A stretch of DNA of 64,000 bases from Candidatus Latescibacterota bacterium (GCA_965204375.1 OZ241986.1:4064001-4128000), one strand, 5' to 3'. Shown: positions 4,502-45,138, numbered from the stretch's first letter. Notes: generated from the sequence alone by a model not told the origin. Numbers and translations are program-made.

Positions 4502-4516
4502 GATATACTCCTTTCT

Positions 4517-4906
4517 TTATTTTTTATTCATTCTTTTGAGTTCTTCCGCTGCATCCTCCACTGAAATCTCACCGGATTCGAGACGGTCGAGAACCTCTTG
4601 CTGGGACGCAGTGGACAAATCCTCCCCCTCGGAATGTGTTCCCGTTGCAAAACCGAGTTCTGCAATCACATCGTCGAGATGGTTGCGAATCGTGCTATAG
4701 GGCACGCGGAGTTCGCGCGTCATCTCTTTGACATTGCCGCGCAATCGGACAAATGTCTCGACAAAAGTCAGGTTTTCGGGTGACAGCCGGTTAAAAATAG
4801 TGGGCTGAAATTCTCCGATAACCTCACAGGCACATCGCGTGCAGCGAATGCGCGTGACAATCACATCATTTTGGCAGGCAGGGCATTTCTCAATAATTTT
4901 ACGCAT
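4517..4906 (-). CDS. DUF2089 family protein (Zn ribbon, HTH, SHOCT-like tail)
   Basis: CPAC..CTRC, FVRLRGNVKEMTRELRVPYSTIR, LESGEISVEDAAEEL; AAGGA RBS before ATG 4906. Confidence 0.8.
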   Translation of the reverse strand: MRKIIEKCPACQNDVIVTRIRCTRCACEVIGEFQPTIFNRLSPENLTFVETFVRLRGNVKEMTRELRVPYSTIRNHLDDVIAELGFATGTHSEGEDLSTASQQEVLDRLESGEISVEDAAEELKRMNKK

Positions 4907-8665: not shown

Positions 8666-10570
8666 CTATTCGGAATAACTGGCGTCTTTGGAAAAATTTT
8701 CGAATTTTTTCCGCAGAGTCTGGTTATCGGGATCAAATTCTATAGCGCGTTCATAGTGGTGGCTTGCGCGGGAGAAATCGCCCATTTTGTGCGCTGCGTC
8801 GCCCGCGTGCTCGTGAATAACCGCGAGATTTTCGCGCAGACCATCTACAATTGGGGAATTGGGATCGGTTTGGCGAAGGGTTTCTTCCTCTACGGCGAGT
8901 GCGCGGTCCAGCCAGCGCGCGGCGTTCTCGTACTGCTTGAGCTGATAATAGACCCAGCCGAGGCTGTCGAGATAAGCGCCGTTCTCTGGATCAATCTTCA
9001 GAGCGCGTTCAATTAACTTTTTTGCCTCGGTGAGGCGTTCACCGCGCTCGGCGAGCATATACCCCAAATAATTGCTGGCATCTGCGTGATCCTGATCCAG
9101 CGCCAAAAGGCGCTGAAATATTGCGACAGCGCGATCGAACTGTCCCGCACGTTCAAGGCTGCGCCCCAGATCAAAGAGCACATGCTCGAGAAACTCGGGA
9201 TTATTTTCCGTATCGGCGACGAGTGGCTCCAGCAGGGGAATGGCTTTTTCCCAGTTGCGATCAAAAAGATATGTACGTGCCAGTTCGTAGCGAAAACCCG
9301 TATTTTGGGGTCTCGCGTCAACAGCCTGTTGATAGATCGTGCGCGCACTGGCAATTTCGTTTTGGCGCAAATAAACGCGGGCAAGATCAAACGCGATTTG
9401 ATCGTAATACTCGCTTTCAGGGCGCGCATCTCGATGGAGCTTTTCCAGGACCTGTTGCGCGCTTGCCCAGTTTTCCTCGGCCCTGTACGAACGGGCAATG
9501 CCGAGATGATATTCGGTCTTTTCACCCTGTAAATTGGCGTGGCGATAGGTTTTGCGCGCATCGGCCGTACGGTTGGCATCGAGCAACAAACGGGCTTTTA
9601 TGCCCAGCAGAGTCTGGTTTTCGGGATCGGTTTGCAACTGGTGATTGAGAACGCGTTCGGCCATATCGACAAATAGCATTTTCTCGTCGTGATCGTGACG
9701 TCCCTTCACCATTCTGAGGAGCACATTGCCCAACTGATTGACCAAACGAGCATCTGGTTCTTCAAAGAGGTAATTGAGATAGGGTTCGTGGCTGTAAATG
9801 TGTACTAACTGAACCCAGACCGGGACGGTCTCCTTGGTAACGCGATAATCTTGCCGCGCGATTATTCCCCGAAAATTTTGTTCTGCAGCCAACGTATCGC
9901 CCCGAGAGAGATGTGTTATGCCCAGCTTAAACTGGAGATCATCGTTATTGGGGTCCTCTTCGAGAATATCGCGATAAATCTGCGCTGCTTTGTCAAACGC
10001 GCGCTGCCGATTGTAGATGTCAGCGGCAAAGCGCTTTTCGCGCGCGCCCATCAGTCCGGGCATAGCAACAATGCTATCGAGCAATGTCAGAACCTTGCCG
10101 CGCTGGCCCCTGGCCCTGTAAATCTGGAAAAGATGTTGATAAGCACTCAGATCTCGTGGCACGAGGCGCACAATGGCATTTAACTGGTCAATCGCTCTGG
10201 TAGTATCGCGCAGGCCCCGGCTGAGAGCTTCGTAATAGAGCCAGCGAATTTGCACATCTTTCGGATCGATTTGGACGGCTCGCCGCGCGGGTTCAACCGC
10301 CTGTTGAAATCGCCGAACAGCATTGAGATTGCGAGCCAGTGCGCTATAGAGTGTCGCAGAGGTTGAGTCGTATTGCACAGCGGCTTGCAATTCTTCAATA
10401 GCCCGATCGCGTTGGCCTGCGGATTCTGCAAATCGCGCCCGCAAAAAGTGCGTGACAGCATGGGGATGAGGGGGTGCTTTTTTGGGTACAGAGCGCAAGC
10501 TAATCTGCGGTTGCTGCGGTGATACACAGCCGATGAGCAGTGTGAACAAAAAACAGAATGTGTAACGCAT
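8666..10570 (-). CDS. tetratricopeptide-repeat lipoprotein
   Basis: lipobox LIGC; many TPRs; NYLGYMLAE and AYLDSLGWVYY motifs. Confidence 0.85.
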   Translation of the reverse strand: MRYTFCFLFTLLIGCVSPQQPQISLRSVPKKAPPHPHAVTHFLRARFAESAGQRDRAIEELQAAVQYDSTSATLYSALARNLNAVRRFQQAVEPARRAVQIDPKDVQIRWLYYEALSRGLRDTTRAIDQLNAIVRLVPRDLSAYQHLFQIYRARGQRGKVLTLLDSIVAMPGLMGAREKRFAADIYNRQRAFDKAAQIYRDILEEDPNNDDLQFKLGITHLSRGDTLAAEQNFRGIIARQDYRVTKETVPVWVQLVHIYSHEPYLNYLFEEPDARLVNQLGNVLLRMVKGRHDHDEKMLFVDMAERVLNHQLQTDPENQTLLGIKARLLLDANRTADARKTYRHANLQGEKTEYHLGIARSYRAEENWASAQQVLEKLHRDARPESEYYDQIAFDLARVYLRQNEIASARTIYQQAVDARPQNTGFRYELARTYLFDRNWEKAIPLLEPLVADTENNPEFLEHVLFDLGRSLERAGQFDRAVAIFQRLLALDQDHADASNYLGYMLAERGERLTEAKKLIERALKIDPENGAYLDSLGWVYYQLKQYENAARWLDRALAVEEETLRQTDPNSPIVDGLRENLAVIHEHAGDAAHKMGDFSRASHHYERAIEFDPDNQTLRKKFENFSKDASYSE

Positions 10571-10575
10571 GATCG

Positions 10576-11826
10576 TTAATCCCTATGTGGGCGAGTTTTT
10601 GATTTGGGTTTTTTGAACTCCCACATCAGTTCGCTGCGGCCAAAATCGGTTTCGTGAGACTGTACGATGAGTTTGATATACTTTGTCTGATCTGAAACAA
10701 CCGGTGTTTTCATAACAGTATGCGCGGAAAAATAGAGTATAAGCAATTTTTCATTGCCCACATAAGTAATATTCACGGGCGGCTCTGCAAAATAGCGCAC
10801 TTTTTCACCAGGCGTATAAGTGGGATAAATATACGTGCCAAATACATCTGTGACTTCGATTTCTCTACCCGGCACAGAAACCTGGAGTGCTTCGAGCGGA
10901 TAAAATGCCCGCTCTTCAATTTTGTCGGGCTCATACCCGATGTCTTCGCTGTCTTCGAGATAAATTGTCCAGCGACTCAGATCGAGATATGCCTTGTCGT
11001 AGATGGTATTGAATTTTAAGCGAATTTGAATATCGTCACCGAGTTGGTTCTGGCGCGCATAATCGTCCCAGGTCTGCGCAGAAATGCTATCGGGGCCGTA
11101 GTGGGTCTGCAACATATCAAATTCTGAACGCACGAGATCCGGAACGTACAGCGTCGCTGAAATGAGCAACGGGGAACGCACGACGCGATAGCGTTCGGAA
11201 ACCCCCAACTCTCGGAATTGCAAATCGGGATGCTCGGCAATACTCGGCGCCTGCGGCAAATCATCTATGGGACGCACCGAGGGAATAAAGCTGCGCACAG
11301 TCCATAACCTGAGCAATTGGGGATATGTCCAGGTGTTACCCGGATCGGGTTCTGAAGGCAGGGTGAGTTTATAGACCTCCTTTTTTCCCGAAAACTCCGG
11401 AAAAAGCGGAGAGTTTTGAACGTGGTAATAGGGATATTGCGCGATGGGAATGGCAAAAACATCGCCCTTGTCGATCAGCTTATCCAGGCGTTCAATTTGC
11501 TTGCTATCGAGCGCAGTTTTGAGCGCATCAAATACGGCACTGGCACTGTCATTCGCGCTCTGGCGCAGACTTCTCAGATCCTTGAGTTTTGGAATATAGC
11601 CCTGCCACAAAAGGGCTTCGTTGGTTCGGCGCGCGCGTTCAGTTTGATATGCAATCACGATATCGCGAAGTGCGGAAACGTGTTTGGCAACATGTTCTTT
11701 CTGATCGCCCTGCGCCTTGAGGTGCTTGCTCAACCGGTCCGCTTCAAGCAGATCCTTCGTATTGGCACCCCAGGCGGTCTGAAGCGCAAAAAGTAAAACC
11801 GCGACAAAACTGGCTCGGAAAAACAT
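10576..11826 (-). CDS. hypothetical secreted protein
   Basis: long ORF in operon with rnr and the TPR gene; signal peptide from ATG 11826 (..AWGA). Confidence 0.6.
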   Translation of the reverse strand: MFFRASFVAVLLFALQTAWGANTKDLLEADRLSKHLKAQGDQKEHVAKHVSALRDIVIAYQTERARRTNEALLWQGYIPKLKDLRSLRQSANDSASAVFDALKTALDSKQIERLDKLIDKGDVFAIPIAQYPYYHVQNSPLFPEFSGKKEVYKLTLPSEPDPGNTWTYPQLLRLWTVRSFIPSVRPIDDLPQAPSIAEHPDLQFRELGVSERYRVVRSPLLISATLYVPDLVRSEFDMLQTHYGPDSISAQTWDDYARQNQLGDDIQIRLKFNTIYDKAYLDLSRWTIYLEDSEDIGYEPDKIEERAFYPLEALQVSVPGREIEVTDVFGTYIYPTYTPGEKVRYFAEPPVNITYVGNEKLLILYFSAHTVMKTPVVSDQTKYIKLIVQSHETDFGRSELMWEFKKPKSKTRPHRD

Positions 11827-14175: not shown

Positions 14176-15255
14176 ATGCAAAACCTCTACTACCTGATCG
14201 CTCTCTTGTGCTTTGGGGGATGCGCCGCGCAATATGTTCTGGCACCCGATGGGGAATACGATTATCGCGTACCCGTTGGGCGAGGCGATGCCCAGGCGGG
14301 ATTTGAAACCCTGTTCACCTCCACCGTTAAAGTAGTATGGACACCCCAATATGCCAACGTGTTCTACACACATAATATGAGAGATGACAGGGGCTTTTCG
14401 CTCCATTTGCCTTTAACAGATGAAAACAGCCCAACGGGCTATCGGCTGACGCGAGATGGTATCCGCGAAACCGTCGATTCTTATTCCAAAGTGGGCACTG
14501 CGCTTGTGGTCACGCGGCAAACATCGACCAATCGATACGACATGGCAATTGCACTGACAAATGCACATGTGGTAACAGCACCAGATACCATTCGGTATTT
14601 TATGCGGGACGCCCGGGGCATGGAAACGAAGGTACTCGAACGGATTTCCATCAAAATCAGCTCCTCATTGCACATGGTCAATCGCAATGGCGAAAGCATC
14701 TCTGCAAAAATCGTGCGCCTCGACCCTGAAGTAGATCTGGCTTTGCTCAAACTCAATATTCCCAATCCGATGAGAGACCCATCGCCTTTTTCTCGGCGGC
14801 TGGGCAAAACATCGGATCTGCAATGGGGCAATTTTGTCTATATCGCAGGTCATCCAAAAAACAAGATGCGCCTCACCGCGGGCACAGTGAGTTTGGACGA
14901 TGACAAAGATCGGTTTTTTGTCGATGCACCCATCCGTGCGGGCTACAGTGGCGGGCCTGTCGTTGCCGTGCGAGATGGACTGCCCAATTTTGAACTCGTG
15001 GGCCTTTGTCGGGGAGCCACAACAGAAACATTCCGATTGCTGGTACCCAACCGAAAACTGAATGAAGGGGCGACATTATCGCCCGACTTGCTCGGTCACA
15101 TCTCGGTTGAAGAGCGCGAGGTCGTGGAACCCGGTTTGGGTATCATCGTGGGAATAGAAGCCGTCAAACGCTTTTTATTGGACAGTCGCGAACCGCTCCG
15201 CGAGATCGGTGTAAATATCAAAACCGACGCGGCAATGCGAATGTGGGGGTTTTGA
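14176..15255 (+). CDS. trypsin-like (S1C) serine protease lipoprotein without PDZ domain
   Basis: lipobox FGGC; catalytic triad motifs LTNAHVV, VDLALL and GYSGGP. Confidence 0.75.
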   Translation: MQNLYYLIALLCFGGCAAQYVLAPDGEYDYRVPVGRGDAQAGFETLFTSTVKVVWTPQYANVFYTHNMRDDRGFSLHLPLTDENSPTGYRLTRDGIRETVDSYSKVGTALVVTRQTSTNRYDMAIALTNAHVVTAPDTIRYFMRDARGMETKVLERISIKISSSLHMVNRNGESISAKIVRLDPEVDLALLKLNIPNPMRDPSPFSRRLGKTSDLQWGNFVYIAGHPKNKMRLTAGTVSLDDDKDRFFVDAPIRAGYSGGPVVAVRDGLPNFELVGLCRGATTETFRLLVPNRKLNEGATLSPDLLGHISVEEREVVEPGLGIIVGIEAVKRFLLDSREPLREIGVNIKTDAAMRMWGF

Positions 15256-15320
15256 ATCCGGGCGATTTGAGTTATATTGTTAATCCGCTTTTTCTAACCG
15301 CTTTTTACAAGGAGACCAAA

Positions 15321-15767
15321 ATGAAACATCTTACTGCTTCTTTGCTGACCTTATTCCTCTTACCCGCGCTCGTCGGGGCGCACTGCGAGATACCGTGTGG
15401 GATCTATGGCGATGAGGGTCGGTTTGCTCTGCTATTGGAAAATGTGACCACCATTGAAAAGTCGATGAATGAAATCAACAAATTATCGGGAGAAAGCGAG
15501 AAAAACAACAACCAGATCGTGCGTTGGGTCGTCAACAAAGAGCACCATGCCGATCAGATTCGCGATATCGTCGCACAATACTTCCTATCGCAACGGATCA
15601 CAGAACCTGCTGAAGGGACGGCAGCAAAAGCCTATACTGAAAAACTAATAGCCCTGCACAAAATTATACGCACAGCAATGAAATGCAAGCAAACCACAGA
15701 CCCGAAAAACGCGCAAACCCTGCGCGATCACATAAATGCTTTCCAAGCCCTTTACAATGCGAAATGA
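15321..15767 (+). CDS. sodN: nickel superoxide dismutase precursor
   Basis: Ni-hook HCEIPCGIY directly after a hydrophobic leader; RWVVNKEHHA, KCKQTTD; AAGGAG RBS. Confidence 0.9.
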   Translation: MKHLTASLLTLFLLPALVGAHCEIPCGIYGDEGRFALLLENVTTIEKSMNEINKLSGESEKNNNQIVRWVVNKEHHADQIRDIVAQYFLSQRITEPAEGTAAKAYTEKLIALHKIIRTAMKCKQTTDPKNAQTLRDHINAFQALYNAK

Positions 15768-17924: not shown

Positions 17925-17959
17925 AAAAAAGGGACACTCAATTGAGTGTCCCTTTTTTT
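17925..17959. terminator. bidirectional terminator
   Basis: AAAAAAGGGACACTCAA|TTGAGTGTCCCTTTTTT palindrome. Confidence 0.9.
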
Positions 17960-17988: not shown

Positions 17989-20571
17989 CTACCCAGTGAC
18001 TGTTTTGCCAAAAGAATCCACGAAGATGAGGAAGTCGGAAATGTCAATGGTTCCATTGTTGTCGAGGTCAAATTTTGGATCGAAGTTTTCCTGTCCGCTC
18101 TGGGTTCCAAATACTTCAGCAAAAAGCAAAAAGTCTGCCATATCGACCTGTCCACTGCCATCAAAGTCGGAAGAGACAAGAGGGGTCTCTTCTACCACAA
18201 AGCGGATGATTTCAGTAAAGTTTGCCCGAAGGATGTTCAGCGCCTTGTCCCATACATTCATTTCGGCAAGTCCCCATGTTCCTGGGATGCTGCCAACCGG
18301 CAAGATGATCGTTTTATGATAGGTTTCATAGATGGTTGGATCGCGTGTAAAATAGACTTTGTGATAATCCTTCGGATCGTAATGCCTAAAGTGGTGCATC
18401 ACGCCATTGGGGTCGCGTAAATACATGTCTGTCGAACGATATCCACTGATGTTGTCCTTGGTTCTAAAGCTAATATCGACCTGTGTTTCGCCGTTTGGAG
18501 CTTCTGGATTGGTCGGTTCTGACTGAATAGTAATCTGATTCAAATCGAGCACAGGTGGTATGTCATCCGGATTTGTCGTTTGAATGTCAATGGTGGCGGG
18601 TTCTTCATCTACTATTACATCATCATCCGCTAATCCATGCCCTGGATCGGTAAAGTACACGCCTCGCACGTTTAAGGCAATATCCTCCATCGAGATGTAA
18701 TTGAGTTTGTACGTGCCATTCTGGAAGTAATCCGGAATTTTAAGTTCAACACTCGCTTCACCGGTTTGTGGATTATAACTTCCATATTCCTGCGCGCGAC
18801 GAGAATAGGTTTCGGCATTTGCATCATTTACATTTGCAAAGACGTGACTTATACCGATTTCTTCAAAAAGTCGCCAACGTGCGGTGAGAATTTGCAGGGA
18901 CCTGTCTTCTGCTGTGCCTGGTGACAATGAGAGTTGCATTGTATTTTTGATGTAATCCGGTGGTTTATAATCGGCAAACGGATTGTTGAGATACAGCTTC
19001 CATCCAAAATCGACCTGAGATTCGTGGCGTTCATTGCCCTGAGCATCCCTGAGAGTAATTTGATCTGGACCCCAATAGCCATGCGCCGCGTGCTTTGATA
19101 GTGTCTTCTGGCCTCGCAAAATGTGGCTTGCATTGATGTACCTGCCATCGGAGCTTACAGGATAAAGATAGATGTCAAAATAAGTGCCTTTTGTACTGAA
19201 AAGCCTGATAGGTGTTGCTTGAGCAGTGTCAAAACCATTCTCACGGTGAAGCTCAAGCTCTATTGTTATATCCTTATCCTTTTCCGGTTCGCCATGTACC
19301 CGTATGTCAACACGTATGATTCGTCCCGGATACACCAAATCGGGATACAGATTATAGACCTGAAACGTCAAGTCTTCGCGTATCCGCGATATGTAGCGCG
19401 TGCCGTGCATGACCCGATCGCGAATAAATTCGTATTTGGCAGGGGAACGCGAGCGCAATTTGTCGGGATCCACGATGTAATAACTGACCGTTTCTGCCAT
19501 GTCCTCATTCGGATTCTTACCGTGTGCATAAGCGGAGACAAACTCAGTCTGCTTAGTCGTTGACCAGCCATCGCCATCGTCTGGATTTTCATACCAGCCT
19601 CCGAGTTCAATCCAATCCTGTTTGAGTTGATCGTCAAAGAGGTGTTCCCATAAGAAGTGTGCTTTTTCATGGAGAATTAAGCGGTGGATGTAGTCGAGGC
19701 CCTGATCCTTAAAAGCGGATTCCATGAACTCAATATAGCCCGCCCTCGTCCATGCCACAGCAGGTGCAGTCGGATAAAGCGGATGGGGTGTTCCATCTAA
19801 TCGCCGCACCAGATATCGCAAACCTGGCGTCGTGAGCATCCCTTGTGGGTATTCTTCAAGCATACTCACAAGAGCCATCAGTTCCTCGTTTTTGAACTCT
19901 CCAAACCGGCCTGCGTGTTCCCCCGTGGTGTTCCGCGTCAGTTCGGTATAGTCCGGTACATATATGCTTACACCGTAGCGGTTCTCTAAAATTCGTTCCA
20001 TCGCACGTCTATCCATGCCACCATCGGTTACGTAGCGAACGACGGCATGGTGGAGTCTTTTGGAGAAGAAACGGCCTCTCACGCCTTCTATTTCTGCCAG
20101 CAATGGATCGGCATAAGTGAAGGCTTCCCGGGACAGGGTGACGATTTTTTGCCCGTCCTGGATGCGAATCTCTATGTCATTTTCAATATGCTGGTCTGTC
20201 AATTGCCATAATGAGGATGGAACTTCGGGTATCTCTTCGGAATAGTCGTTACTCAATTGTGGGATAGACTCAAAGGTTTGGAGCAGTCGGTAAGCCTGGT
20301 CTGCGTTCCATTCGGTGCCGAGTAATACTGAATATTTTTGCATGAGACGCAATGATGCGCTGTGGGGCACAACCTGTATCGGCTGGTGTAAGAACATGAC
20401 CTGCACGGGTTGAACAAGGGTGGCCGATTCTACCCCTTCATAGGTTTTATCGGTTTTCCAGGTATAGGTGTATTGTGCAACAGCGTGTCCGCTGAAGATG
20501 AGTGTCAGCAGGAGGATTATGCAGCTCAGGGACGCAAATTTAGAGATGCGGTGATATGTTTTTTTATCCAT
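17989..20571 (-). CDS. secreted zincin-type metallopeptidase with Ig-like repeats and C-terminal dockerin/EF-hand pair
   Basis: signal peptide (AVA|Q); HEKAH then SAYA..NPNEDMAE; three DxxxN beta-sandwich-like repeats; DFDGSGQVDMADF and DLDNNGTIDISDF. Confidence 0.7.
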   Translation of the reverse strand: MDKKTYHRISKFASLSCIILLLTLIFSGHAVAQYTYTWKTDKTYEGVESATLVQPVQVMFLHQPIQVVPHSASLRLMQKYSVLLGTEWNADQAYRLLQTFESIPQLSNDYSEEIPEVPSSLWQLTDQHIENDIEIRIQDGQKIVTLSREAFTYADPLLAEIEGVRGRFFSKRLHHAVVRYVTDGGMDRRAMERILENRYGVSIYVPDYTELTRNTTGEHAGRFGEFKNEELMALVSMLEEYPQGMLTTPGLRYLVRRLDGTPHPLYPTAPAVAWTRAGYIEFMESAFKDQGLDYIHRLILHEKAHFLWEHLFDDQLKQDWIELGGWYENPDDGDGWSTTKQTEFVSAYAHGKNPNEDMAETVSYYIVDPDKLRSRSPAKYEFIRDRVMHGTRYISRIREDLTFQVYNLYPDLVYPGRIIRVDIRVHGEPEKDKDITIELELHRENGFDTAQATPIRLFSTKGTYFDIYLYPVSSDGRYINASHILRGQKTLSKHAAHGYWGPDQITLRDAQGNERHESQVDFGWKLYLNNPFADYKPPDYIKNTMQLSLSPGTAEDRSLQILTARWRLFEEIGISHVFANVNDANAETYSRRAQEYGSYNPQTGEASVELKIPDYFQNGTYKLNYISMEDIALNVRGVYFTDPGHGLADDDVIVDEEPATIDIQTTNPDDIPPVLDLNQITIQSEPTNPEAPNGETQVDISFRTKDNISGYRSTDMYLRDPNGVMHHFRHYDPKDYHKVYFTRDPTIYETYHKTIILPVGSIPGTWGLAEMNVWDKALNILRANFTEIIRFVVEETPLVSSDFDGSGQVDMADFLLFAEVFGTQSGQENFDPKFDLDNNGTIDISDFLIFVDSFGKTVTG

Positions 20572-20646
20572 TGTGTTCCCCTAAAATGTGAAAGTTTAGT
20601 GAATCGCTTTCATCAAGCCTGACGGGATCCGAACTCAATTTATATA

Positions 20647-20662
20647 TGCAAAAATCGTGCCA
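20647..20662 (-). promoter_or_regulatory. sigma54 (-24/-12) promoter of the peptidase gene
   Basis: minus strand TGGCAC-GATTT-TTGCA, about 75 bp upstream of the ATG. Confidence 0.85.
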
Positions 20663-20712
20663 ATGTGAGCGTTGTTTCAGAGAGCTATACTCATAAAATG
20701 TTGTTTTATATC

Positions 20713-20768
20713 AAAAAAAGAGCCAATCTGACTATATCATATCGTCGCTGAATAGTCGGATTGGCTCT
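20713..20768 (-). terminator. long inverted repeat, terminator-like
   Basis: AAGAGCCAATC(C/T)GACTAT 18-bp arms; T run follows on the minus strand. Confidence 0.55.
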
Positions 20769-20873
20769 TACACAAGACTTTATATGGTCTTGTGGAGGAC
20801 GTACTATGGTCTCCATGGTCCCGAGAGCATCATTCATTATTATTTTTCGTTCTGTTCACCTCGAGTACAAATA

Positions 20874-20910
20874 AAAGCCCGTCAATCACCACCGATTGAC
20901 GAGCTTTTTT
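20874..20910. terminator. terminator downstream of the sigma54 activator
   Basis: AAAAGCCCGTCAATC-loop-GATTGACGAGCTTTTTT. Confidence 0.65.
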
Positions 20911-21031
20911 ATTTTATGGTCGCCCAACTGTACCACTCACTAAACCAATGGCACAGGATGATGGGTTTGAAACTTCTACACTATCCACTCAAGCGGGATA
21001 ATTCCAGGGTATAAACTACGATAGCAGCTTA

Positions 21032-24000
21032 TCAGTGATGATTTATTTTGATACCCAGTCTTTTCATTTTCCCATACAGAGTAGAAGGTGGTACTCCAAG
21101 CAACTTCGCCGCGCCCTCAGGACCCTTTATCTGATAGTTCGTAGCTTTTAGAGCATCAAGGATGTAGCGGCGTTCATATTCATTTAAAGGCACAAATTCA
21201 CGGTCTTGAGAAGCCGATAAAGTCCGCTGACCCTTATCTGCGATTCGAGAACCATACAGTCCCAGATCTCCCACTCCGATTTGAGACTCAGGACACAAGA
21301 TGACAGCCCGCTGCATCGTATGCTCTAATTCCCGCACATTCCCTGGCCAATCGCAGGCTTGCAACACCTCTATAACCTCTGGCGTCAAGGGAGCTATTTG
21401 CTTGCCCAAATGCGCCGCCAGGCGATCTTTGAAATACTCGGCCAACTCCGGGATATCCTCCTTGCGCTCGCGCAGAGGCGGCAAATACATTGGAAAGGCA
21501 TTGAGGCGGTAATACAGATCCTCCCGAAAAGCACCTGCACTGACCATCTCCTCAAGATTGCGATTCGTCGCTGCCACAATCCGCGTCTTTGCCCTCAGCG
21601 TCTCGCTGCTGCCAACGCGCTCAAACGTGCCCTCTTCCAGCAAGCGCAACAGCTTGCCCTGCGTTTCCAGCGCCATATCGCTGATCTCATCTAAAAAGAG
21701 CGTGCCACCCTCCGCCAGTTCCACCCTACCCAGTCTGCGAGAAACTGCGCCGGTAAATGCTCCTTTCTCATGACCAAAAAATTCACTATCGATCAACGCT
21801 CCGGGCAATGCACCGCAACTAACCTCTATAAAAGGCCCATCGCTATGGGCACTCAGCGCGTGTAGTGTCCGCGCTGCCAGTCCCTTGCCCACACCCGTCT
21901 CACCCAGAATCAGCACCGTTATATCAGTCGATCCTACCTTTCTAAGCTGATTTTGAAACGCCTGCAGGGCCACACTCTGACCGATAAACTCGTTGTTCCT
22001 CTGACCGTTGAGTGCGGCTGTCAGAGCTTCCATGCGCAAGTCTGGTTCGACTGAGATTTCAACCTGCGCGATCTCTGAGTAATTGAGATCGCGATCTATC
22101 GCCCGGACCTGGAATGTGTAGTCTCCCGGTGGCAATTCCCGGTAATGCGCCCGCACCTTTCGGGTTGCTGGTTGCCAATCTGCATCATAGCCCTTCAGGC
22201 GATGAATATAGAGCATATCACGGGAGGGTGTAGAAAAACTCAGACCCTTGTACTCGAAAATCACATTCTGGTCTGCTTTAGATAAGATGCCTTCCTCTAA
22301 GTCCTCATAGACCTGATCAGCGATCACCTGCAGCAGACGAATCCGGGGTGGAATGTATCGCAGACGGTAGCGGATTATAGAACCCTGAACAGTGCCAAAA
22401 TAGAAGATTCCATCGCGATCTTCGAATATCTGGCAAACCAGTCCTATATGCGGTGAATTGATGGTCTGAAAAAGCTGACCATCAAAGTGAACCACGCCCC
22501 CGTCTGTACCAAACCATAGATGACCGCGCGAATCCTCGAACAAACAACGGATGCGATTATGCGGCAAACCATCTGCTGTTGTGAAATTGTGAAAGACGCG
22601 ACCATCAAAGCAAGCCAGACCGCCCTGAGTAGCGATCCACAGGTTGCCATCGCGGTCTAAGAGCAGATCGTTGATCTTGTGGTCTATCAGCCCATCATCA
22701 ACCCCATAAAATTTAAGACCCTCTTCAGGATGCCAGCGCGCCAGACCCCTGTCGTCATTTGAGAAATGGTGGCAGGCCAAATGAAAATAGATCTCGCCAT
22801 CGCACCCGGCGACCACAGTGCCAATGCGGTCTAAAATATTTTCTTTTTTCTCCTCCAAAAAAATGGTTTGAAACTCCTCGCCCTGCTGGTAAATGAGCTT
22901 TAATGGGCTGGCCAAAAGCGCTTCTCTTTTGTTATTACAGCCCCGTTCCCAATAGCCGAAAAGGAAATTCCCCTGAGCACCCTGGACAATTGTGCTGATA
23001 CTCTTTTTCCCTAAACCTGCGGGTGATTCCATCTTTTTCAACTTCTTCCCATCATAGCGGAACAGGCCATTGCGACCACCGAACCACAGATACCCTTCAT
23101 GGTCCTCATAGATAGAGAAACAGTTGTCAACATCAAAGCCCTGCTCACGACCTAAAACTGTAACGTGCCCGTCATCAATGCGAGCGATGCTTTTGTGCAG
23201 GGTGGTGAGAACAGGAGACACAAACCCAATCCATATATCACTGCGCCGGTCTTGCACGATCTGCGAGATCTCGATAAAATCTTTGCCGAACAGCTTACCC
23301 AGATCGAAAATGCTGATACTGTGTTCTTCGTAGAGCACGATACCGCCCCAGGTGGCGAACCAATACTGATGCTCCCGATCCTGGAACACGGCTATGACCG
23401 CGGGATGGGGCAGGCCATCGGCAAGAGTAAATTCGCTGAACCCATCGCCATCCTCGTAGAGCACCCCTTCCAGGGTACAAAACCACATCCGGCCTTCCCG
23501 ATCACACTGAATTTTGCGTAGCCAACCACTCAAATCTACCTGAATAGACTGGAAGTTGCCATCGGCATAGCACCAGAGCCTGTCTCCATATCCAAGCCGA
23601 CCGATCCACACCTTGCCGGTATGGTCCTGACTCACGGCATAGCTGACTTCAGCCTGGGAAAAGCCCTCCTCTTCTTCGTAGCGGTGAAAGGATGTACCGT
23701 CAAAGCGGATGGGATATTCAGCGCCAATCCACAGATGGCCTTGTGGATCCTGGGTGATGCCCCAGCAATGGGGGATATTCCAATCCGGAATAAGCGGAAT
23801 GATGTCGTGGAAGGTCGTACCGTCGTAATACCCCAGAGTATGCTGGCCTCCGCACCATATACGCCCCTCACGGTCTTCGTAGATGGATTGCACCGTTCTG
23901 CCTGCAATGCCGTCGTCCTCCAAATGGTGAAAATTTACGCCGTCATACCAGCAAACACCCTTTGATGTACCGAACCACAATCGCTTTTGACTATCCAGAT

Positions 24001-24214
24001 AGATGGTAATAATCTGGTTGCTACAAAGACCATCCTGTTGGGTAAATGTCTGAAACGCATTGCCATCAAAGCGGCAGGTACCGTTGTCCCAGGTGGCGAA
24101 CCAGAGATAACCCTCGCTATCTTCGGCGATGTGTTGGATGCGTAAACTGGACAGGCCTTCGGATATGGAATAAGTCCGATAGGTGCCCGTGCGGTCAAGT
24201 GGCTTGATCATCAA
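21032..24214 (-). CDS. sigma54-dependent activator (bEBP) with N-terminal Reg_prop beta-propellers and Y_Y_Y domain
   Basis: repeated EDxxGxLWFGT blades; YRELPPGDYTFQVRAID; GETGVGK, GAFTGA, LFLDEI, WPGNVRELE; Fis-type HTH; no signal peptide or TM helix. Confidence 0.9.
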   Translation of the reverse strand: MMIKPLDRTGTYRTYSISEGLSSLRIQHIAEDSEGYLWFATWDNGTCRFDGNAFQTFTQQDGLCSNQIITIYLDSQKRLWFGTSKGVCWYDGVNFHHLEDDGIAGRTVQSIYEDREGRIWCGGQHTLGYYDGTTFHDIIPLIPDWNIPHCWGITQDPQGHLWIGAEYPIRFDGTSFHRYEEEEGFSQAEVSYAVSQDHTGKVWIGRLGYGDRLWCYADGNFQSIQVDLSGWLRKIQCDREGRMWFCTLEGVLYEDGDGFSEFTLADGLPHPAVIAVFQDREHQYWFATWGGIVLYEEHSISIFDLGKLFGKDFIEISQIVQDRRSDIWIGFVSPVLTTLHKSIARIDDGHVTVLGREQGFDVDNCFSIYEDHEGYLWFGGRNGLFRYDGKKLKKMESPAGLGKKSISTIVQGAQGNFLFGYWERGCNNKREALLASPLKLIYQQGEEFQTIFLEEKKENILDRIGTVVAGCDGEIYFHLACHHFSNDDRGLARWHPEEGLKFYGVDDGLIDHKINDLLLDRDGNLWIATQGGLACFDGRVFHNFTTADGLPHNRIRCLFEDSRGHLWFGTDGGVVHFDGQLFQTINSPHIGLVCQIFEDRDGIFYFGTVQGSIIRYRLRYIPPRIRLLQVIADQVYEDLEEGILSKADQNVIFEYKGLSFSTPSRDMLYIHRLKGYDADWQPATRKVRAHYRELPPGDYTFQVRAIDRDLNYSEIAQVEISVEPDLRMEALTAALNGQRNNEFIGQSVALQAFQNQLRKVGSTDITVLILGETGVGKGLAARTLHALSAHSDGPFIEVSCGALPGALIDSEFFGHEKGAFTGAVSRRLGRVELAEGGTLFLDEISDMALETQGKLLRLLEEGTFERVGSSETLRAKTRIVAATNRNLEEMVSAGAFREDLYYRLNAFPMYLPPLRERKEDIPELAEYFKDRLAAHLGKQIAPLTPEVIEVLQACDWPGNVRELEHTMQRAVILCPESQIGVGDLGLYGSRIADKGQRTLSASQDREFVPLNEYERRYILDALKATNYQIKGPEGAAKLLGVPPSTLYGKMKRLGIKINHH

Positions 24215-24274
24215 AAAGAACCCTATGATATGAATAAAAAACTGGTTTATAAATTGTAGCTCGCATCTGTAAAC

Positions 24275-24480
24275 TAAATAATAATGATTTCTAAATATTC
24301 AAGAACAAAATGCGCCTTGATCATTTGCCAAAATTTCCTTCTTTATTTTTTCATACTTTTAAGTTGGAGTAACGGCTGCAACCGATAGACAGATAGGAAA
24401 CTTAGTCCTGGGTCTGAGTCGTCTATCTTCAAGATAAGGTCTTTAATTTTCTCATCCAGTTTGAGCAACTGTAGAATCAA
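24275..24480 (-). pseudogene. degraded fragment of a small protein resembling recombinase-cassette accessory proteins
   Basis: hand translation ILQLLKLDEKIKDLILKIDDSDPGLSFLSVYRLQPLLQLKSMKK*RRKFWQMI; no proper start, internal TAA. Confidence 0.4.
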
Positions 24481-24749
24481 TGCGATCAACTCTTTCACCA
24501 CATCGCCCATTCACCGATCAAAATATACACTTTTGTCGCCAACGCTCGATCCCCGCGTCAACAGACAATCCACAAATTCAAGTTGTGAACAATCCCCCAA
24601 TACAGCATATTAAATGCATAATGAGGTGCCTGAGTTTCTGTCGAGCTTTTTTGTTGCTCAATTTTGTGATATTGGCCTGATATTTGCTTGAGTTCTGACT
24701 GTTGCGTTTGTCCAAAATACGACCAACCTTCAGAACAGAGGAAGCAGAA

Positions 24750-25133
24750 GTGTCAGACGTCCACAATTCAATTAAAGAATATAAAGGCATTCTGGGACAG
24801 GTCACTTCACCCCTAATATTTTTTGCTCTGGCACTTCTGGTCATTGAAGGAATCATTGGGATTACAGTCGTCAAATCAAAACTCGACGCTATACAGCAAT
24901 TCTACATGATTCTTGTTATGGCCTTTTTATTTTTGGCTGTTGTTGGTCTCGTTGCCTGGATTACTGTGAAATATCCGTTGAACTTAATGGATAAAGTTGA
25001 TGAAAGCATAGCACGCAATGAAGTGATTGAAAATTTTGTTGAAAGTGACATGTTTAGAGATACTGTCATCGACATCGTAACTGATATTGTCCAGCAGGCA
25101 CAATCAAAGGAGCGAGAAAATGGATCAAAATGA
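24750..25133 (+). CDS. hypothetical two-TM membrane protein
   Basis: two hydrophobic helices; GAGGA RBS before GTG 24750. Confidence 0.55.
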   Translation: MSDVHNSIKEYKGILGQVTSPLIFFALALLVIEGIIGITVVKSKLDAIQQFYMILVMAFLFLAVVGLVAWITVKYPLNLMDKVDESIARNEVIENFVESDMFRDTVIDIVTDIVQQAQSKERENGSK

Positions 25134-25389
25134 ACGAGGAACGATAAAGGAGATTGTCAAAGTGATCTATCACTCCAGGGGAGATTGGCGCACGCCGGGG
25201 GGTATTGCAAGGGCTCTCCAACTTCCTTCTGAGACTGTAACCCAAATCGTAAAAAGCCATCCCGAATTTTTTATTTTAGCAGGTGACGACCGTGCGAAAT
25301 ATGCTCTTCGTCCCGGCGGTCTCGATGCCGTGTCACTCACTGATAATGCGCGAGACTTATATCTCCAGGAACTAACGCTGAGTTCATAG
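25120..25389 (+). CDS. small putative winged-helix protein
   Basis: AAGGAG RBS; overlaps the upstream gene; WRTPGGIARALQLPSETV HTH-like segment. Confidence 0.5.
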   Translation: MDQNERGTIKEIVKVIYHSRGDWRTPGGIARALQLPSETVTQIVKSHPEFFILAGDDRAKYALRPGGLDAVSLTDNARDLYLQELTLSS

Positions 25390-25420
25390 CTCACGACACA
25401 TCTCACCCTATCTTCAATCT

Positions 25421-30886: not shown

Positions 30887-32005
30887 TCAAGCCACCTGAC
30901 TTTGTAATCCCAAAGTCAATATGTTTAGCGCAGCATTGTGGTCTCTGTCAGTGGTATAGCCACACTTTTTGCAATGATGCACACGATCAGAGAGGGCTTT
31001 CTTCTGTCTATGTCCACAAGAAGAGCAATCTTGTGAGGTGTATTCAGGATCAACAGGCTTGAATCCAATACCAGCTTCTTCCGCTTTGTATTCGAGACAA
31101 TGCCGAAACAGGAACCACGCTGCGTCTGAGATGCTTTTTGACAAGCGACGATTCTTTTGCATCTTTTTCGCGTCTAACTTTTCTGTTGCAACAAAGCCAT
31201 ACTTATTGACGACTTTTCGAGCTTCTTGGTGGACAAAATTATGTCGTCTATTACGGATACGCTCATGCACTCTGGCAACAGTCTTACGTGCTTTCTCTCG
31301 TTTTTTTGGCGACGCTTTTTTTACTTTGTCCCACTTGCGCTGTGCTTTTGCAAGTGCCTTTTCCTCTTTACGAAAAAAGCGAGGATTAGCGATCTTTTCT
31401 CTATCAGAAAACATAGCAAAATTATCAAGTCCCACGTCAATGCCAACGGCGGGGCCAGCGTCTGTTTTTTCAGGCGCAGTGCCTATATCACAAGAGATAG
31501 TAACAAACCACTTGCCCGTCGCTGTGCGTCTGAGCGTGCAAGACTTAGGCATACCCTCAAGGGGTCTGTGCTGCACAATCCGAATACAGCCTATTTTGCC
31601 CAATCGCAAGCCCTTATCGTCCAATCGGCAACCATTGGAAAACTGAGGATAGGTGATAGAATCATAGCGATTCTGACCTTTGTATCTGGGAAAGCCAGCT
31701 TTCTCACCCGTCTTTGCCCGCTCTTTGACACGACGAAAGAACGCCTTGAATGCAAGATCAACCCGTACCGCGACCTGTTGCAACACCTGACTATACACTT
31801 GCGTAAATTCAGGTCGTTGTTTCTTCATCAATGGCATGGTTTTTATCTGGTCATAGCAGGACAAAGACTGATGCTTTTGCTGCCATGCTTGTACTCTCAC
31901 ACAAAGAAGCTGGTTATACAGCAAGCGACATTCTTCGCTATGCGCCGTCAGGATTTTCTCCTGTTTTTTCGTCGGGCGCAATCTGTATTTTACGGACTTA
32001 AACAT
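30887..32005 (-). CDS. tnpB: RNA-guided endonuclease TnpB
   Basis: N-terminal KYRLRPT; RuvC motifs GIDVG, ATEKL and DRDHNAALNI; Zn finger CSSC..CKKC. Confidence 0.93.
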   Translation of the reverse strand: MFKSVKYRLRPTKKQEKILTAHSEECRLLYNQLLCVRVQAWQQKHQSLSCYDQIKTMPLMKKQRPEFTQVYSQVLQQVAVRVDLAFKAFFRRVKERAKTGEKAGFPRYKGQNRYDSITYPQFSNGCRLDDKGLRLGKIGCIRIVQHRPLEGMPKSCTLRRTATGKWFVTISCDIGTAPEKTDAGPAVGIDVGLDNFAMFSDREKIANPRFFRKEEKALAKAQRKWDKVKKASPKKREKARKTVARVHERIRNRRHNFVHQEARKVVNKYGFVATEKLDAKKMQKNRRLSKSISDAAWFLFRHCLEYKAEEAGIGFKPVDPEYTSQDCSSCGHRQKKALSDRVHHCKKCGYTTDRDHNAALNILTLGLQSQVA

Positions 32006-32011
32006 AATAAA

Positions 32012-32040
32012 AATATACATTTATGAGTGTGTTTTGTCAA
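32012..32040 (-). promoter_or_regulatory. sigma70 promoter of tnpB, probably giving a leaderless mRNA
   Basis: TTGACA-N17-TATATT; ATG lies 7 nt past the -10. Confidence 0.7.
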
Positions 32041-37575: not shown

Positions 37576-39402
37576 ATGAAAACTCGAACATCATTCACGA
37601 TTCCCATTGTCGGCCTGCTCCTGCTGGCCGGTGCCTTTTCCAATGCGCCTCCCGCCCTGGCAGATTGTCCACTCCCTCCCGGCGTGTCGCCTCCTGCGGC
37701 CCCGGCTGTGACGGCACAACAGGTGGAAGACGGCAGCGCTACCCTGCAGGAATTCGCGCTGGTGACGAGAGATCAATTCAAGCAGGGACAAGCGACTCCG
37801 GAAGAATCGTTTTACTTTGGATGTCTCATCAGGCAAGACGGGAGCTATTGGCATTCCGGTTCCACCTACATCGTGTCACTGCTGGCCGACGGCAGGATAT
37901 TCGTTCACGCAAAGGATATGGCATTGTCGGGCAGGTTGCTCAACCCGGTGATCTATGGAACGATCCTTTCTGCGTTGGGAGTATCCTTAACCGATCTGGC
38001 CAACCTGGCTTCTCCCGATCCTGCTGTCGCCGCCCAGGCTTTTGGCGCCGTCTTTAACACATTGTTGCAAGAACCGGATGCCCCATTCGATGCGACCACC
38101 CCTATTCCGGGTCTAAGTCCGGGGATACCAGGTGCCTCCGGCTATGCCACCGTACATCTCTCGGGCAATTTCGGGGTCCCGATCATAATGCTCGTCGGGT
38201 TCGATCTCAATGAATCTCACGTGGTTGAGGAAGAAATCGATTACGGCGACCCGGCCGTTACCGCCGAGGACGTGGTAGATCGAGAAACTCTGAAGGCATT
38301 CGTCACGCAAGCAGGGGAATTCATGCTCGAACTCCAGAAGAGCGGCGACCTGGCCGCTTCCTCGAAACTCAGAATCGCCTTGCGGGATCCGAACGGACCC
38401 TATAGACACGGTAACGTGTACCTCTACGTCCTGGATCTTACCAGCAACATAGTCCTATTGCACGCCGCGTTTCCAAACCGATTCGAGCTTCGGCCTCTGG
38501 TAGGGATTGCCCGAGACGGCGTTACCGGAGAACTCATACTACCGCAGGTCATCGAAGCGGCGAAAAGTGATCCGGAAGGCGGCTTCGTGGAGTATTTCTA
38601 CGACGATCCCACCGACGACACAGACAGGGCCGATATCCCCAAGGTGGGATACGCACGCCAGTTCACCGGTGAACTCAGTTTAAGCGGACGCATGGTCCCA
38701 TACAACTTCATCATTGGGTCGGGTTTTTATGGGCGCGCACCCGATGTTATCCCGGACGGTCCCCTTACACAAGTGGAGGCCACGGTCTCAGGCGACGCCG
38801 TCGAAGGATTGACCGTCGCGTTTGCTCAATCCATCGCCGGCCAGCCTGCCGACTACGCCCATAACGCTGTCACAGATGCCAATGGCTATTTGTCCCTCAC
38901 CATCTCCAACCCAGATGGCGTGAGTGGTTACTATACAGCCCGCGCCAGCAACGCCGATGGCGAAATCGTCGGCCAGTGGCACTCCATTCCCCTCAATCAC
39001 AATCAGCGCCAGATATTAGAACTGACGCTGGGCGGCGGTATGAAGATCGTACGCGTCGAACCACTCGCCGCAGCCAAGCCAGTGGTCACAGCCGAGACAG
39101 AGACCGTATCCGAGACAGTACCGGAAGTTAGTGGTCTGGCACCCAACTTTCCCAACCCGTTCAACAGCGCCACCCTGATAACCTACCATCTATCCACCCC
39201 CGGCCCGGTGCAGTTGGTGATCTACAATGTGCTGGGTCAGCCCGTACGCACATTGGTGGATCAGTCCCAGGCCGCTGGCACCTACCAGATTCGGTGGGAT
39301 GTCCTCGACCAGCGGGGCGTCTCGCTATCGACGGGGATCTATATCGCACGTTTGAGCTATCCCGGCGGGGTGCAGACGCAACGGCTGCTCTACCTCAAGT
39401 AG
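37576..39402 (+). CDS. secreted Cache-domain protein with FlgD/T9SS-like C-terminal domain (copy 1)
   Basis: signal peptide ALA|DC; sCache-like LKAFV..YLYVLD..LH..GGFVEYFY..KVGYA..IIGSGFY; NFPNPFN..IYNVLGQ..STGIY..LYLK tail. Confidence 0.75.
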   Translation: MKTRTSFTIPIVGLLLLAGAFSNAPPALADCPLPPGVSPPAAPAVTAQQVEDGSATLQEFALVTRDQFKQGQATPEESFYFGCLIRQDGSYWHSGSTYIVSLLADGRIFVHAKDMALSGRLLNPVIYGTILSALGVSLTDLANLASPDPAVAAQAFGAVFNTLLQEPDAPFDATTPIPGLSPGIPGASGYATVHLSGNFGVPIIMLVGFDLNESHVVEEEIDYGDPAVTAEDVVDRETLKAFVTQAGEFMLELQKSGDLAASSKLRIALRDPNGPYRHGNVYLYVLDLTSNIVLLHAAFPNRFELRPLVGIARDGVTGELILPQVIEAAKSDPEGGFVEYFYDDPTDDTDRADIPKVGYARQFTGELSLSGRMVPYNFIIGSGFYGRAPDVIPDGPLTQVEATVSGDAVEGLTVAFAQSIAGQPADYAHNAVTDANGYLSLTISNPDGVSGYYTARASNADGEIVGQWHSIPLNHNQRQILELTLGGGMKIVRVEPLAAAKPVVTAETETVSETVPEVSGLAPNFPNPFNSATLITYHLSTPGPVQLVIYNVLGQPVRTLVDQSQAAGTYQIRWDVLDQRGVSLSTGIYIARLSYPGGVQTQRLLYLK

Positions 39403-39420
39403 CACCGATTTCTCATAGCT

Positions 39421-39462
39421 AAAAAAAAGGCCCCTGACTGAAAATTCAGGGGCCTTTTTTTT
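39421..39462 (+). terminator. terminator
   Basis: AAAAAAAAGGCCCCTGA..TCAGGGGCCTTTTTTT. Confidence 0.85.
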
Positions 39463-39608
39463 ACGCCGATATTCCGTTTGCGTGCTGTCAAGCGCAAAAA
39501 AGCAATGGAATTTATGCATAGAAAATTGATTTGCTGATCAAAATATTCTTCATTATCTTCTCTGCACTTATTCCTTACCACCCATTCCTTAAAGGGAGGA
39601 CCATCGCG

Positions 39609-42925: not shown

Positions 42926-42956
42926 GGGGAACCTCCTGTAAAAAATGGGGGAGCTA

Positions 42957-43523: not shown

Positions 43524-43618
43524 TTCCTATAAAGGGAAAACAACGCATTAACATCAATAAAAACAAAATGTTAATCCCAAATATCAAAAATCCGCGATAA
43601 ACGCACTCCAAATATTAT

Positions 43619-43634
43619 AGCAATATCCGTGCCA
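43619..43634 (-). promoter_or_regulatory. sigma54 (-24/-12) promoter
   Basis: minus strand TGGCAC-GGATA-TTGCT. Confidence 0.85.
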
Positions 43635-43721
43635 AAAAATTGCCTATATACATAACTTATTGTTTATATTGAACAAAAATCAGAAAACCCGATCTCCATA
43701 TTCTTTTTTTTTCATTTAGCC

Positions 43722-43766: not shown

Positions 43767-43776
43767 TTTTTAAAAA

Positions 43777-45135: not shown

Positions 45136-45138
45136 AAG

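Follow-up and report, generated by a model that had tools for sequence, protein, structure and literature searches.

The question raised by this locus is how a double-propeller/Y_Y_Y sensor, a module known experimentally only as a periplasmic glycan receptor and without a role in sigma-54 transcription described in the open-access literature searched, can come to share one polypeptide with a sigma-54 activator, and what such a protein would control. The locus lies in a 64,000-nucleotide stretch of DNA from Candidatus Latescibacterota bacterium (GCA_965204375.1, OZ241986.1:4064001-4128000), referred to as the window, and all positions are counted from its first letter. On the minus strand of the window, a gene for a soluble protein made of Reg_prop repeats, a Y_Y_Y domain, an AAA+ domain and a helix-turn-helix (HTH), named the activator, is followed by a sigma-54 promoter and then by a gene for a putatively exported protein, named the cargo. 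The reading we favour, and consider likely while well short of certain, is that the activator is a one-component, cytoplasmic sigma-54 enhancer-binding protein, which would bind dyads in front of the promoter and drive the adjacent exported-protein gene under the control of a signal. To judge from the comparisons below, the feature itself is real and represents an uncharacterised, widespread variant of the one-component sigma-54 activator.

The open reading frame (ORF) of the activator extends over 21032-24214 on the minus strand, starts with TTG at 24214 and encodes 1060 residues. Four relatives aligned from three related loci (L001, L002 and L003, described below) all begin one codon later, at the methionine that corresponds to ATG 24211, and for this reason the likely start is ATG 24211, with a product of 1059 residues. 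The sensor, formed by the propellers and the Y_Y_Y domain, comprises about 720 residues and is joined by a linker of about 20 residues to the AAA+ domain, which is followed by the Fis-type HTH (Table 1). The Reg_prop repeats were matched by Pfam with E 3.3e-51, and an iterative profile built from the activator's own blades identified 12 clear blade motifs, seven in residues 25-297 and five in residues 315-617. A gap of 124 residues among the blades (389-513) leaves space for two divergent ones, and the predicted blade count fits two seven-bladed propellers, with room for 14 blades. Furthermore, the Walker A motif (GETGVGKG, residue 771) and the DE pair (residue 842) are both intact, and AAA_lid_14 is also present according to Pfam. 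In an alignment of 44 sequences, the GAFTGA motif has F820 and A823 without variation and G818, A819 and T821 conserved to 90% or more, with G822 in neither class. The C-terminal part of the activator family profile matches the structures of FleQ, ZraR, NtrC, NtrC1 and PspF at 1e-107 to 1e-80. No HisKA, HATPase_c, Response_reg or AraC HTH match was found in the activator by Pfam at E <= 0.01, and no NCBIfam equivalog model reached its cut-off; the NCBIfam matches are confined to the ATPase-HTH part, the best being NifA with 322.9 bits against a cut-off of 528.85, in the ATPase part only. An earlier note on this DNA had placed the activator and cargo frames on the same strand and described a propeller and Y_Y_Y sensor fused to a GAFTGA-bearing AAA+ domain and a Fis HTH, with no kinase or receiver. 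Both frames were recovered by the ORF finder as placed, Pfam, the motif scan and the blade profile confirm the domain order, and the Pfam scan agrees on the missing kinase and receiver.

The cellular location of the sensor was judged by a simple Kyte-Doolittle hydropathy scan over 19 residues, with 1.6 as the threshold for a membrane segment. The most hydrophobic 19-mer of the activator reaches 1.09, and the N-terminal stretch of the cargo protein reaches 2.06 in the same scan. Sensor relatives of the membrane type carry segments scoring 1.7-2.9 at the N-terminus and just after Y_Y_Y. The linker between the sensor and the ATPase of the activator contains no helix-length hydrophobic run, and 119 of the 120 closest activator relatives lack a segment of at least 1.6, the exception (P0064) having one of 1.63 inside the propeller. 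An N-terminal extension with a leader was considered and rejected: the frame is closed upstream of 24214, and the relatives share the start methionine. Because no leader or helix is present and the sensor is fused directly to a DNA-binding ATPase, which must be cytoplasmic, the sensor is predicted to be cytoplasmic and cannot be periplasmic. The claim made beforehand that signal peptide and membrane helix are absent is upheld by the hydropathy maximum, the closed frame and the relatives alike. The further claim that the sensor had been relocated to the cytoplasm stands as far as the cytoplasmic location goes, and overreaches as to the direction of the move, the tree described below being unrooted.

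The architecture is common in databases, neither rare nor singular to this locus. A word-indexed search with the full activator scored 8,000 candidates, of which 3,010 had E <= 0.001. The best 120 of these relatives all combine Reg_prop, Y_Y_Y and Sigma54_activat in 1047-1101 residues and are 67-89% identical to the window protein; the database names of activator relatives are 'sigma 54-interacting transcriptional regulator', 'AAA domain-containing protein' and 'hypothetical protein'. This shared domain set and length contradict the idea that the gene is a functionless remnant, a hybrid two-component system decayed by loss of its membrane parts, for which nothing speaks beyond the homology of the sensor to such systems. 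The frame is uninterrupted and every ATPase motif is present, and Reg_prop accompanies Sigma54_activat in no fewer than 17 additional clusters (50% identity level), so that decay can be given almost no weight as an explanation. Since at least four of the activator clusters share one longest-contig value (6,530,187 bp) and two others share a contig of 17,788 bp, genomes appear to hold several activator copies, some of them in tandem.

The sensor alone has a far wider distribution. Residues 1-735, compared with 1.84 billion cluster representatives, gave 109,379 matches at E <= 0.001 and 17,537 at 1e-30. Beyond the family's own representative, 67 of the best 149 sensor matches were scanned with Pfam, and Sigma54_activat was found in 17 of the 67, namely in 17 of the 54 without a hydrophobic segment versus none of the 13 with one. 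Hybrid histidine kinases, SpoIIE-type phosphatases and a PAS-kinase are likewise found among the leaderless relatives that align colinearly with the sensor. A tree was calculated for 30 sensor domains picked from the best 150 matches (19 from leaderless proteins and 11 from membrane forms whose sensors are about as long), in which the soluble and membrane forms are split with 100% support in the Shimodaira-Hasegawa-like approximate likelihood ratio test (SH-aLRT). On the soluble side, output types are interspersed, and most inner branches there are weak. The split, together with the interspersed kinase, SpoIIE and sigma-54 outputs, indicates that the soluble sensor is a separate group joined to several outputs and is not special to sigma-54 activators. 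Because leaderless sensors carry kinase and phosphatase outputs too, the rule that Reg_prop/Y_Y_Y means periplasmic is unsafe for genome annotation.

What the sensor does within this family is less evident than where it lies. Identity to the window protein over 35 close relatives is 69-72% in the sensor, 74% in the HTH and 79% in the ATPase, and the five activators read hardly differ around the recognition helix. The sensor is thus almost as conserved among paralogues as the ATPase, unlike sensors that diversify with their ligands, and several near-identical paralogues occur per genome. Both observations suit an alternative in which the propellers and Y_Y_Y serve as a scaffold for protein interaction or self-association, with a partner protein or a polymer as the input, or in which the activator is constitutive and controlled by its own expression. 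Against this, the only characterised sensor relatives bind oligosaccharides directly, according to the excerpted text of PMC3243724; the structures of these oligosaccharide-binding sensors match the family profile at E 5e-71, and 12 clear blades are retained. We consider a scaffold or a constitutive activator unlikely, while giving it some weight, and keep to a signal-controlled activator as the preferred reading.

The promoter between the two genes is an exact TGGCAC-N5-TTGCW, with GG and GC ten bases apart, on the same strand as the downstream gene. From the activator stop to its upstream edge (20662) there are 369 bp, and from its downstream edge (20647) to the cargo ATG there are 75 bp; this ATG is preceded at 6 nucleotides by an AGGGGA ribosome-binding site. 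The exact pattern occurs twice in the window versus 0.13 expected, and none of 100 shuffles gave two or more; once a single mismatch is tolerated, the number of matches (10 versus 5.6 expected) no longer stands out. Both exact copies are intergenic and stand just downstream of an activator gene. The second copy, beside an NtrC/AtoC-like activator, serves as an internal positive control, which indicates that the organism uses the canonical -24/-12 consensus in the same gene-then-promoter layout. Terminator-like hairpins follow both the activator gene and the cargo gene, the latter likely being a two-way terminator that closes the unit. From these hairpins two separate transcription units are predicted: the activator gene probably forms a unit of its own, and the cargo gene stands alone. 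An operon of activator and cargo was considered and rejected, in view of the strong hairpin terminator and the 460 bp of intergenic DNA between them.

The arrangement recurs in related loci. A scan of the genome collection, in which the conserved ATPase motif dominated the matches, returned 79 loci, of which only L001, L002 and L003 cover the sensor, and the other 76 were used as controls. With the strict pattern TGGYAY-N5-TTGCW, distances measured from the activator ORF and a flank of 400 bp, a promoter was found at all four propeller-activator loci (the window included) and at four of the five propeller-activator genes. In L001, it lies 169 bp downstream of the activator in the same direction, before a gene for a 124-residue protein with two membrane segments (Imm_superinfect). 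In L002, it lies 277 bp upstream and divergent, before a gene for a 260-residue protein with a signal peptide, a dockerin-like module and leucine-rich repeats, and in L003, it lies 267 bp upstream and divergent, before a gene for a 393-residue repeat protein with a signal peptide. Every one of the four downstream proteins has a signal-like or membrane segment, and two of them (window and L002) have dockerin-like repeats. Among the controls, which come from other phyla, where the strict pattern may describe the promoters less closely, 10 of the 76 loci of other activator families have a promoter within 400 bp (8 of 76 within 300 bp); four of four versus 10 of 76 gives a one-sided Fisher p of about 6e-4, calculated from the counts. 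The earlier note had described a consensus promoter at 20647-20662 in front of a gene for a secreted protein, which the exact match on the same strand bears out, and had named missing linkage of homologues to sigma-54 promoters as a way in which its reading could fail; that linkage recurs in four of four loci, and the one to exported-protein genes recurs in the relatives as well.

Adjacency might nevertheless be incidental, with the promoter served by another activator and the propeller activator acting on distant targets. The highly conserved HTH means that any paralogue might serve any cassette, and the window does hold a second activator. Set against this, the promoter stays close to the activator in four of four loci despite rearrangement, and the DNA in front of it (the cassette described below) is as conserved as the activator gene. 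We regard incidental adjacency as improbable and retain local control of the neighbouring gene as the preferred reading.

Two of the related loci have further features of their own. In L001 (5304-12420), two tandem propeller activators that are 81% identical enclose a promoter (8686-8701) and the gene for the small two-helix Imm_superinfect membrane protein. No terminator-like site was found between that gene and the second activator, and one activator copy might switch on the next. In L002, the stretches 3487-4540 (minus strand) and 9705-11027 (plus strand) are of note: RAMP-superfamily and weakly Cmr3-like ORFs are found just downstream of the gene for the dockerin and leucine-rich repeat cargo, and a transposase of the Mutator family adjoins the activator.

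Sequence conservation around the promoter defines a cassette of about 170 bp, a candidate enhancer, which aligns across the window, L002 and L003, with the promoter forming its 3' end; the earlier note does not mention it. With an nhmmer profile of the cassette, the window, L002 and L003 each gave a single copy (E 7e-55, 2e-53 and 6e-53), and no further copy turned up in the 64-kb window or in all 79 fetched loci. Among these three sequences, nucleotide identity is 79-86% in the cassette versus 78-80% in the activator coding sequences, and the 100 nucleotides after the promoter are only 34-53% identical. A cassette as conserved as the activator, with similarity ending at the promoter, points to activator plus cassette as the conserved unit, with a different cargo immediately after the promoter. 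Relative to the activator, the window has the cassette on the 3' side, and L002 and L003 have it on the 5' side in divergent orientation, so proximity has been kept despite rearrangement. In the L002 and L003 loci, two direct repeats AATNTCACRCTTG 32-33 bp apart (L002 5910-5954 and L003 5911-5956, minus strand) sit between the cassette and the start of the divergent activator. Such repeats are no more frequent in the window than chance gives, and in the divergent arrangement they may serve the activator itself as promoter or operator.

Three dyads were recognized within or at the upstream edge of the cassette, with positions counted from a start placed 12 nucleotides after the C of TTGC. The arms of dyad 3 are 16 nucleotides long, and in dyad 2 two pairs stay symmetric through changes on both sides in the three sequences compared. 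The L001 locus has its promoter and a different dyad at about -151. In the mechanism proposed here, the HTH of the activator would bind the cassette dyads at about -107, -146 and -176. A cytoplasmic signal sensed by the propellers would release or promote the assembly or activity of the AAA+ ring, which would spend ATP on opening the closed sigma-54 complex over 20647-20662 and so lead to synthesis of the exported cargo protein. As proposed in the earlier note, a ligand may be what switches the activator on. By analogy with the scissor-like movement mentioned in the excerpted text of PMC8534201, a shift of the two C-termini of a sensor dimer relative to each other might, speculatively, reach the ATPase domains by way of the short linker.

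Several observations weigh against this reading. Besides the origin of the controls from other phyla, three related loci were read and the four loci are not independent, because L002 and L003 share one arrangement. The promoter nearest to the second paralogue of L001 is 524 bp upstream of it, outside the 400-bp flank, and L001 lacks the cassette save for a weak promoter-proximal match (E 0.12). Dyad 1 is complete in L002 and L003, and the window copy has a degraded left arm; the dyads also have no one half-site in common that keeps its orientation throughout. No rpoN gene is present within the 64-kb window. The similar conservation of sensor, HTH and ATPase among paralogues would misfit a private ligand and a private site for each copy and raises a problem of cross-talk. 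Finally, dyad 3 with its T-run resembles an intrinsic terminator (-26.3 kcal/mol, z -5.65).

The last point belongs to an alternative in which the dyads form terminators or other RNA structures, for instance an insulating terminator or the fold of a small transcript, and the true enhancer lies elsewhere or is very short. The long hairpin of dyad 3 followed by a run of U is found in all three loci (-24.9 and -18.7 kcal/mol, z -5.16 and -3.80, in addition to the values above), RNAalifold predicts three consecutive hairpins in the cassette, and the changes in dyad 3 of L003 are compatible with G-U pairing. In L002 and L003, however, no co-directional gene stands upstream of the cassette to be terminated, the activator being divergent. 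No Rfam family matches the cassette dyads, nothing reaching the gathering score across the whole 64-kb window, and no convincing sigma-70 promoter for a small RNA was seen by eye in the sequence. The changes that keep the dyads symmetric would suit a DNA palindrome equally. Enhancer sites of sigma-54 activators typically lie at positions such as -107 to -176, which is where the dyads stand. Taken together, RNA or terminator structures in place of binding sites seem to us the less probable account, at perhaps one chance in several, and binding of the activator to the dyads remains our preferred reading.

In this lineage, activator and cassette may have been multiplied as a module, each copy standing before a different exported-protein gene. 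We propose only tentatively the stronger form of this idea, that the activator and the cassette of about 170 bp are a portable module with many copies per genome, each capturing a different gene for an exported or dockerin-tagged protein. If true, the module would parallel, on a sigma-54 basis and with sensing in the cytoplasm, the one-regulator-per-locus logic of the polysaccharide utilisation loci of Bacteroidota. That the copies have near-identical sensors and DNA-binding domains would then mean that signals are shared, rings are mixed or cross-talk is deliberate.

Table 1. Coordinates of the activator, cassette, promoter and cargo features in the window; dyad positions are relative to the predicted transcription start.
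Feature	Position	Strand	Description	Basis
Activator gene	21032..24211	-	soluble Reg_prop/Y_Y_Y-AAA+-HTH sigma-54 activator (predicted), 1059-1060 residues	ORF finder, Pfam, motif scan
Propeller region	22364..24142	-	residues 25-617	iterated profile of the activator's own blades
Y_Y_Y domain	22049..22225	-	residues 664-722	Pfam, E 3.3e-11, 43.4 bits versus cut-off 26.6
Sigma-54 interaction AAA+ domain	21488..21985	-	residues 744-909	Pfam Sigma54_activat, E 8.4e-64
GAFTGA motif	21746-21763	-	exact, residue 818	motif scan
Fis-type HTH_8	21056..21184	-	residues 1011-1053	Pfam, 29.1 bits versus cut-off 22
Terminator-like hairpin after activator gene	20873..20908	-	16 pairs, T-rich tail; -22.7 kcal/mol, z -7.35	
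Dyad 1 remnant	20797..20822	-	about -176	
Dyad 2	20769..20796	-	ACAAGAC-N8-GTCTTGT, about -146	
Dyad 3	20718..20769	-	arms GAGCCAATCCGACTAT and ATAGTCAGATTGGCTC, variable 15-nucleotide spacer, then T-run; about -107	
Conserved cassette, candidate enhancer	20646..20815	-	about 170 bp, ends in the sigma-54 promoter	three-way alignment
Sigma-54 promoter (predicted)	20647..20662	-	TGGCAC-N5-TTGCA, TGGCACGATTTTTGCA	pattern scan
Cargo gene	17989..20571	-	860 residues, signal-like N-terminus, HEXXH, dockerin-like module	ORF finder, Pfam, hydropathy
HEKAH motif of cargo	19657-19671	-	residue 301	
EDMAE motif of cargo	19492-19506	-	E356-E360, invariant in 30 homologues	
Dockerin-like module of cargo	17998-18174	-	C-terminal 60 residues	
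Palindromic hairpin	17925..17958	.	T/A-flanked, between cargo gene and convergent groEL	
Second exact sigma-54 promoter (predicted)	43619-43634	-	between AtoC/NtrC-like response-regulator activator and PTS-IIA-like gene	

The cargo is a probable secreted zinc peptidase with a dockerin-like tag. The charged stretch at its N-terminus is followed by a hydrophobic core (Kyte-Doolittle 2.06-2.67) and AVA-Q, and by eye residues 1-32 would form a Sec signal peptide with cleavage after AVA. In 30 homologues, H301, E302 and H305 are invariant, as are N353, P354, E356, D357, M358, A359 and E360; a glutamate of the EDMAE motif may be the third zinc ligand, by comparison with the motifs of other zincins. 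The cargo scores 18-19 bits against Peptidase_Mx and Mx1 of Pfam, below the cut-offs of 25.6-27, and Peptidase_Mx is matched by 25 of the 30 homologues at E <= 0.01 (best 7.9e-6). No solved structure was matched by the sequence of the catalytic part. At the C-terminus, Dockerin_1 is scored at 21.7 bits, slightly under its cut-off of 22.9, and the solved dockerin 2y3n_B is matched with E 2.6e-7; the family profile matches the dockerins 4u3s and 4wi0 at about 1e-5, and calmodulin-type EF-hands match weakly as well. The secreted, dockerin-tagged HEXXH peptidase proposed beforehand is, with the tag read as dockerin-like and the peptidase as probable, a fair description. Of the 46 window ORFs scanned, none showed a cohesin domain. 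In the Protein Atlas, one stored cargo homologue led only to 'hypothetical protein' clusters, below 0.9.

Among the 30 cargo homologues, the C-terminal tags are Dockerin_1 in 13 (best 4.3e-12), FlgD_ig in 10 and Por_Secre_tail in 6. The family presents one body with an exchanged C-terminal address tag (dockerin, FlgD_ig or a type IX secretion tail), and some contigs hold two copies of it. The cargo gene, with a G+C content of 0.472, is the second lowest among the 22 genes measured in the window; the lowest among the genes measured (0.451) is an IS605 OrfB/TnpB-like gene at 30887-32020 on the minus strand, with Cas12f1-like TNB, OrfB_IS605 and HTH_OrfB_IS605 domains.

Upstream of the activator, a 1.2-kb AT-rich stretch (24212-25420) has a G+C content of 0.405 versus 0.519 for the window and contains short ORFs only. 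Three of these, in 24578-25389, gave nothing credible in Pfam at a permissive threshold. Around the locus, Rfam at a relaxed threshold gave only a sub-threshold CRISPR-DR10 match (24999-25033) in this stretch, and no direct repeats are present there. The second exact promoter belongs to a group of genes on the minus strand (42074-46191), in which an AtoS/AtoC-like pair of a kinase (45139-46191) and a response-regulator activator (43777-45135) lies upstream of it, followed downstream by a PTS-IIA (PtsN/FruA-like) gene at 42957-43523 and a 283-residue RpoS/RpoD-like factor of the sigma-70 family at 42074-42925. This promoter may therefore drive an alternative sigma factor. On the plus strand, two tandem paralogues of 608 and 613 residues (37576-41372) end in a FlgD_ig domain, and both carry the one-mismatch promoter-like string TGGCACCCAACTTTC inside the coding region. 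Also on the plus strand (14176-15767), a gene for a trypsin-like peptidase runs into the start of a nickel superoxide dismutase gene, next to groES-groEL.

The public labels of this lineage disagree, because homologues of both GroEL and the activator are filed under two phyla. The label on metagenome-assembled genomes with activator relatives is Gemmatimonadota/Gemmatimonadetes or, for those in the genome collection, Candidatus Latescibacterota, and complete chromosomes with 69-71% identical activators are labelled Latescibacterota/Latescibacteria. The GroEL of the window is 100% identical to a Gemmatimonadota-labelled record, and 96% and 88-89% identical to Latescibacteria/Latescibacterota-labelled records.

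If the preferred reading is confirmed, a signal-controlled cytoplasmic activator of the adjacent gene would mean that this sensor fold works inside the cell and couples to an AAA+ ring, which would provide a membrane-free system for studying its signalling. It would also define regulators and a promoter cassette for exported, dockerin-tagged proteins in an uncultured lineage, and a compact activator-promoter pair for testing as a heterologous switch.

Three groups of known systems bear on the locus. The first comprises the hybrid two-component sensors of Bacteroides (BT4663, Protein Data Bank entries 4A2L/4A2M; 3V9F; 3OTT/3VA6), in which homologous Reg_prop blades are followed by Y_Y_Y. The sensor part of the activator family profile matches 4a2l/4a2m at 5.4e-71, 3v9f at 1.2e-69 and 3ott/3va6 at 2.3e-42, and residues 1-735 of the window protein alone match the Bacteroides structures at E 7.6e-40. 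The excerpted text of Martens 2011 (PMC3243724) presents the canonical Bacteroides sensor as two seven-bladed propellers with YYY, periplasmic and in direct contact with oligosaccharides, and a scissor-like movement on signalling is described for BT4663 in a review (PMC8534201). In the Bacteroides hybrid systems, the periplasmic sensor lies between membrane helices and acts on kinase, receiver and AraC outputs, whereas the window activator has no leader, helix, kinase, receiver or AraC domain, and its predicted output is a sigma-54 AAA+ motor.

The second group is formed by leaderless Reg_prop/Y_Y_Y kinases and SpoIIE phosphatases among database proteins, which are the closest relatives of the sensor outside the family (36-48% identity). 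They align colinearly from about residue 5, contain no hydrophobic segment and stand on the same side of the tree, and they differ from the window activator in the output domain. No paper on this leaderless group came up, and no search aimed at that group was made. Within open-access papers and preprints, subscription journals lying outside the scope, no description of a Reg_prop/Y_Y_Y sigma-54 activator was found, in agreement with the earlier note, which knew of no characterised regulator with this architecture, and no relevant paper on Latescibacter with sigma-54 or dockerin was found either.

The third group, one-component sigma-54 enhancer-binding proteins with an N-terminal sensor, such as DmpR/XylR/MopR, NorR and FhlA, offers the closest likeness in overall design, and sigma-54 activators are known for exchanging their N-terminal sensors. 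As in the DmpR type, a sensor and a short linker precede a GAFTGA-bearing AAA+ domain and a Fis-type HTH, no phosphorylation step is involved, and the gene adjoins its -24/-12 target promoter, here a predicted one. The difference resides in the sensor: in place of the V4R, GAF, PAS or similar domain of the DmpR-type activators, the window protein has a double propeller with Y_Y_Y of about 720 residues.

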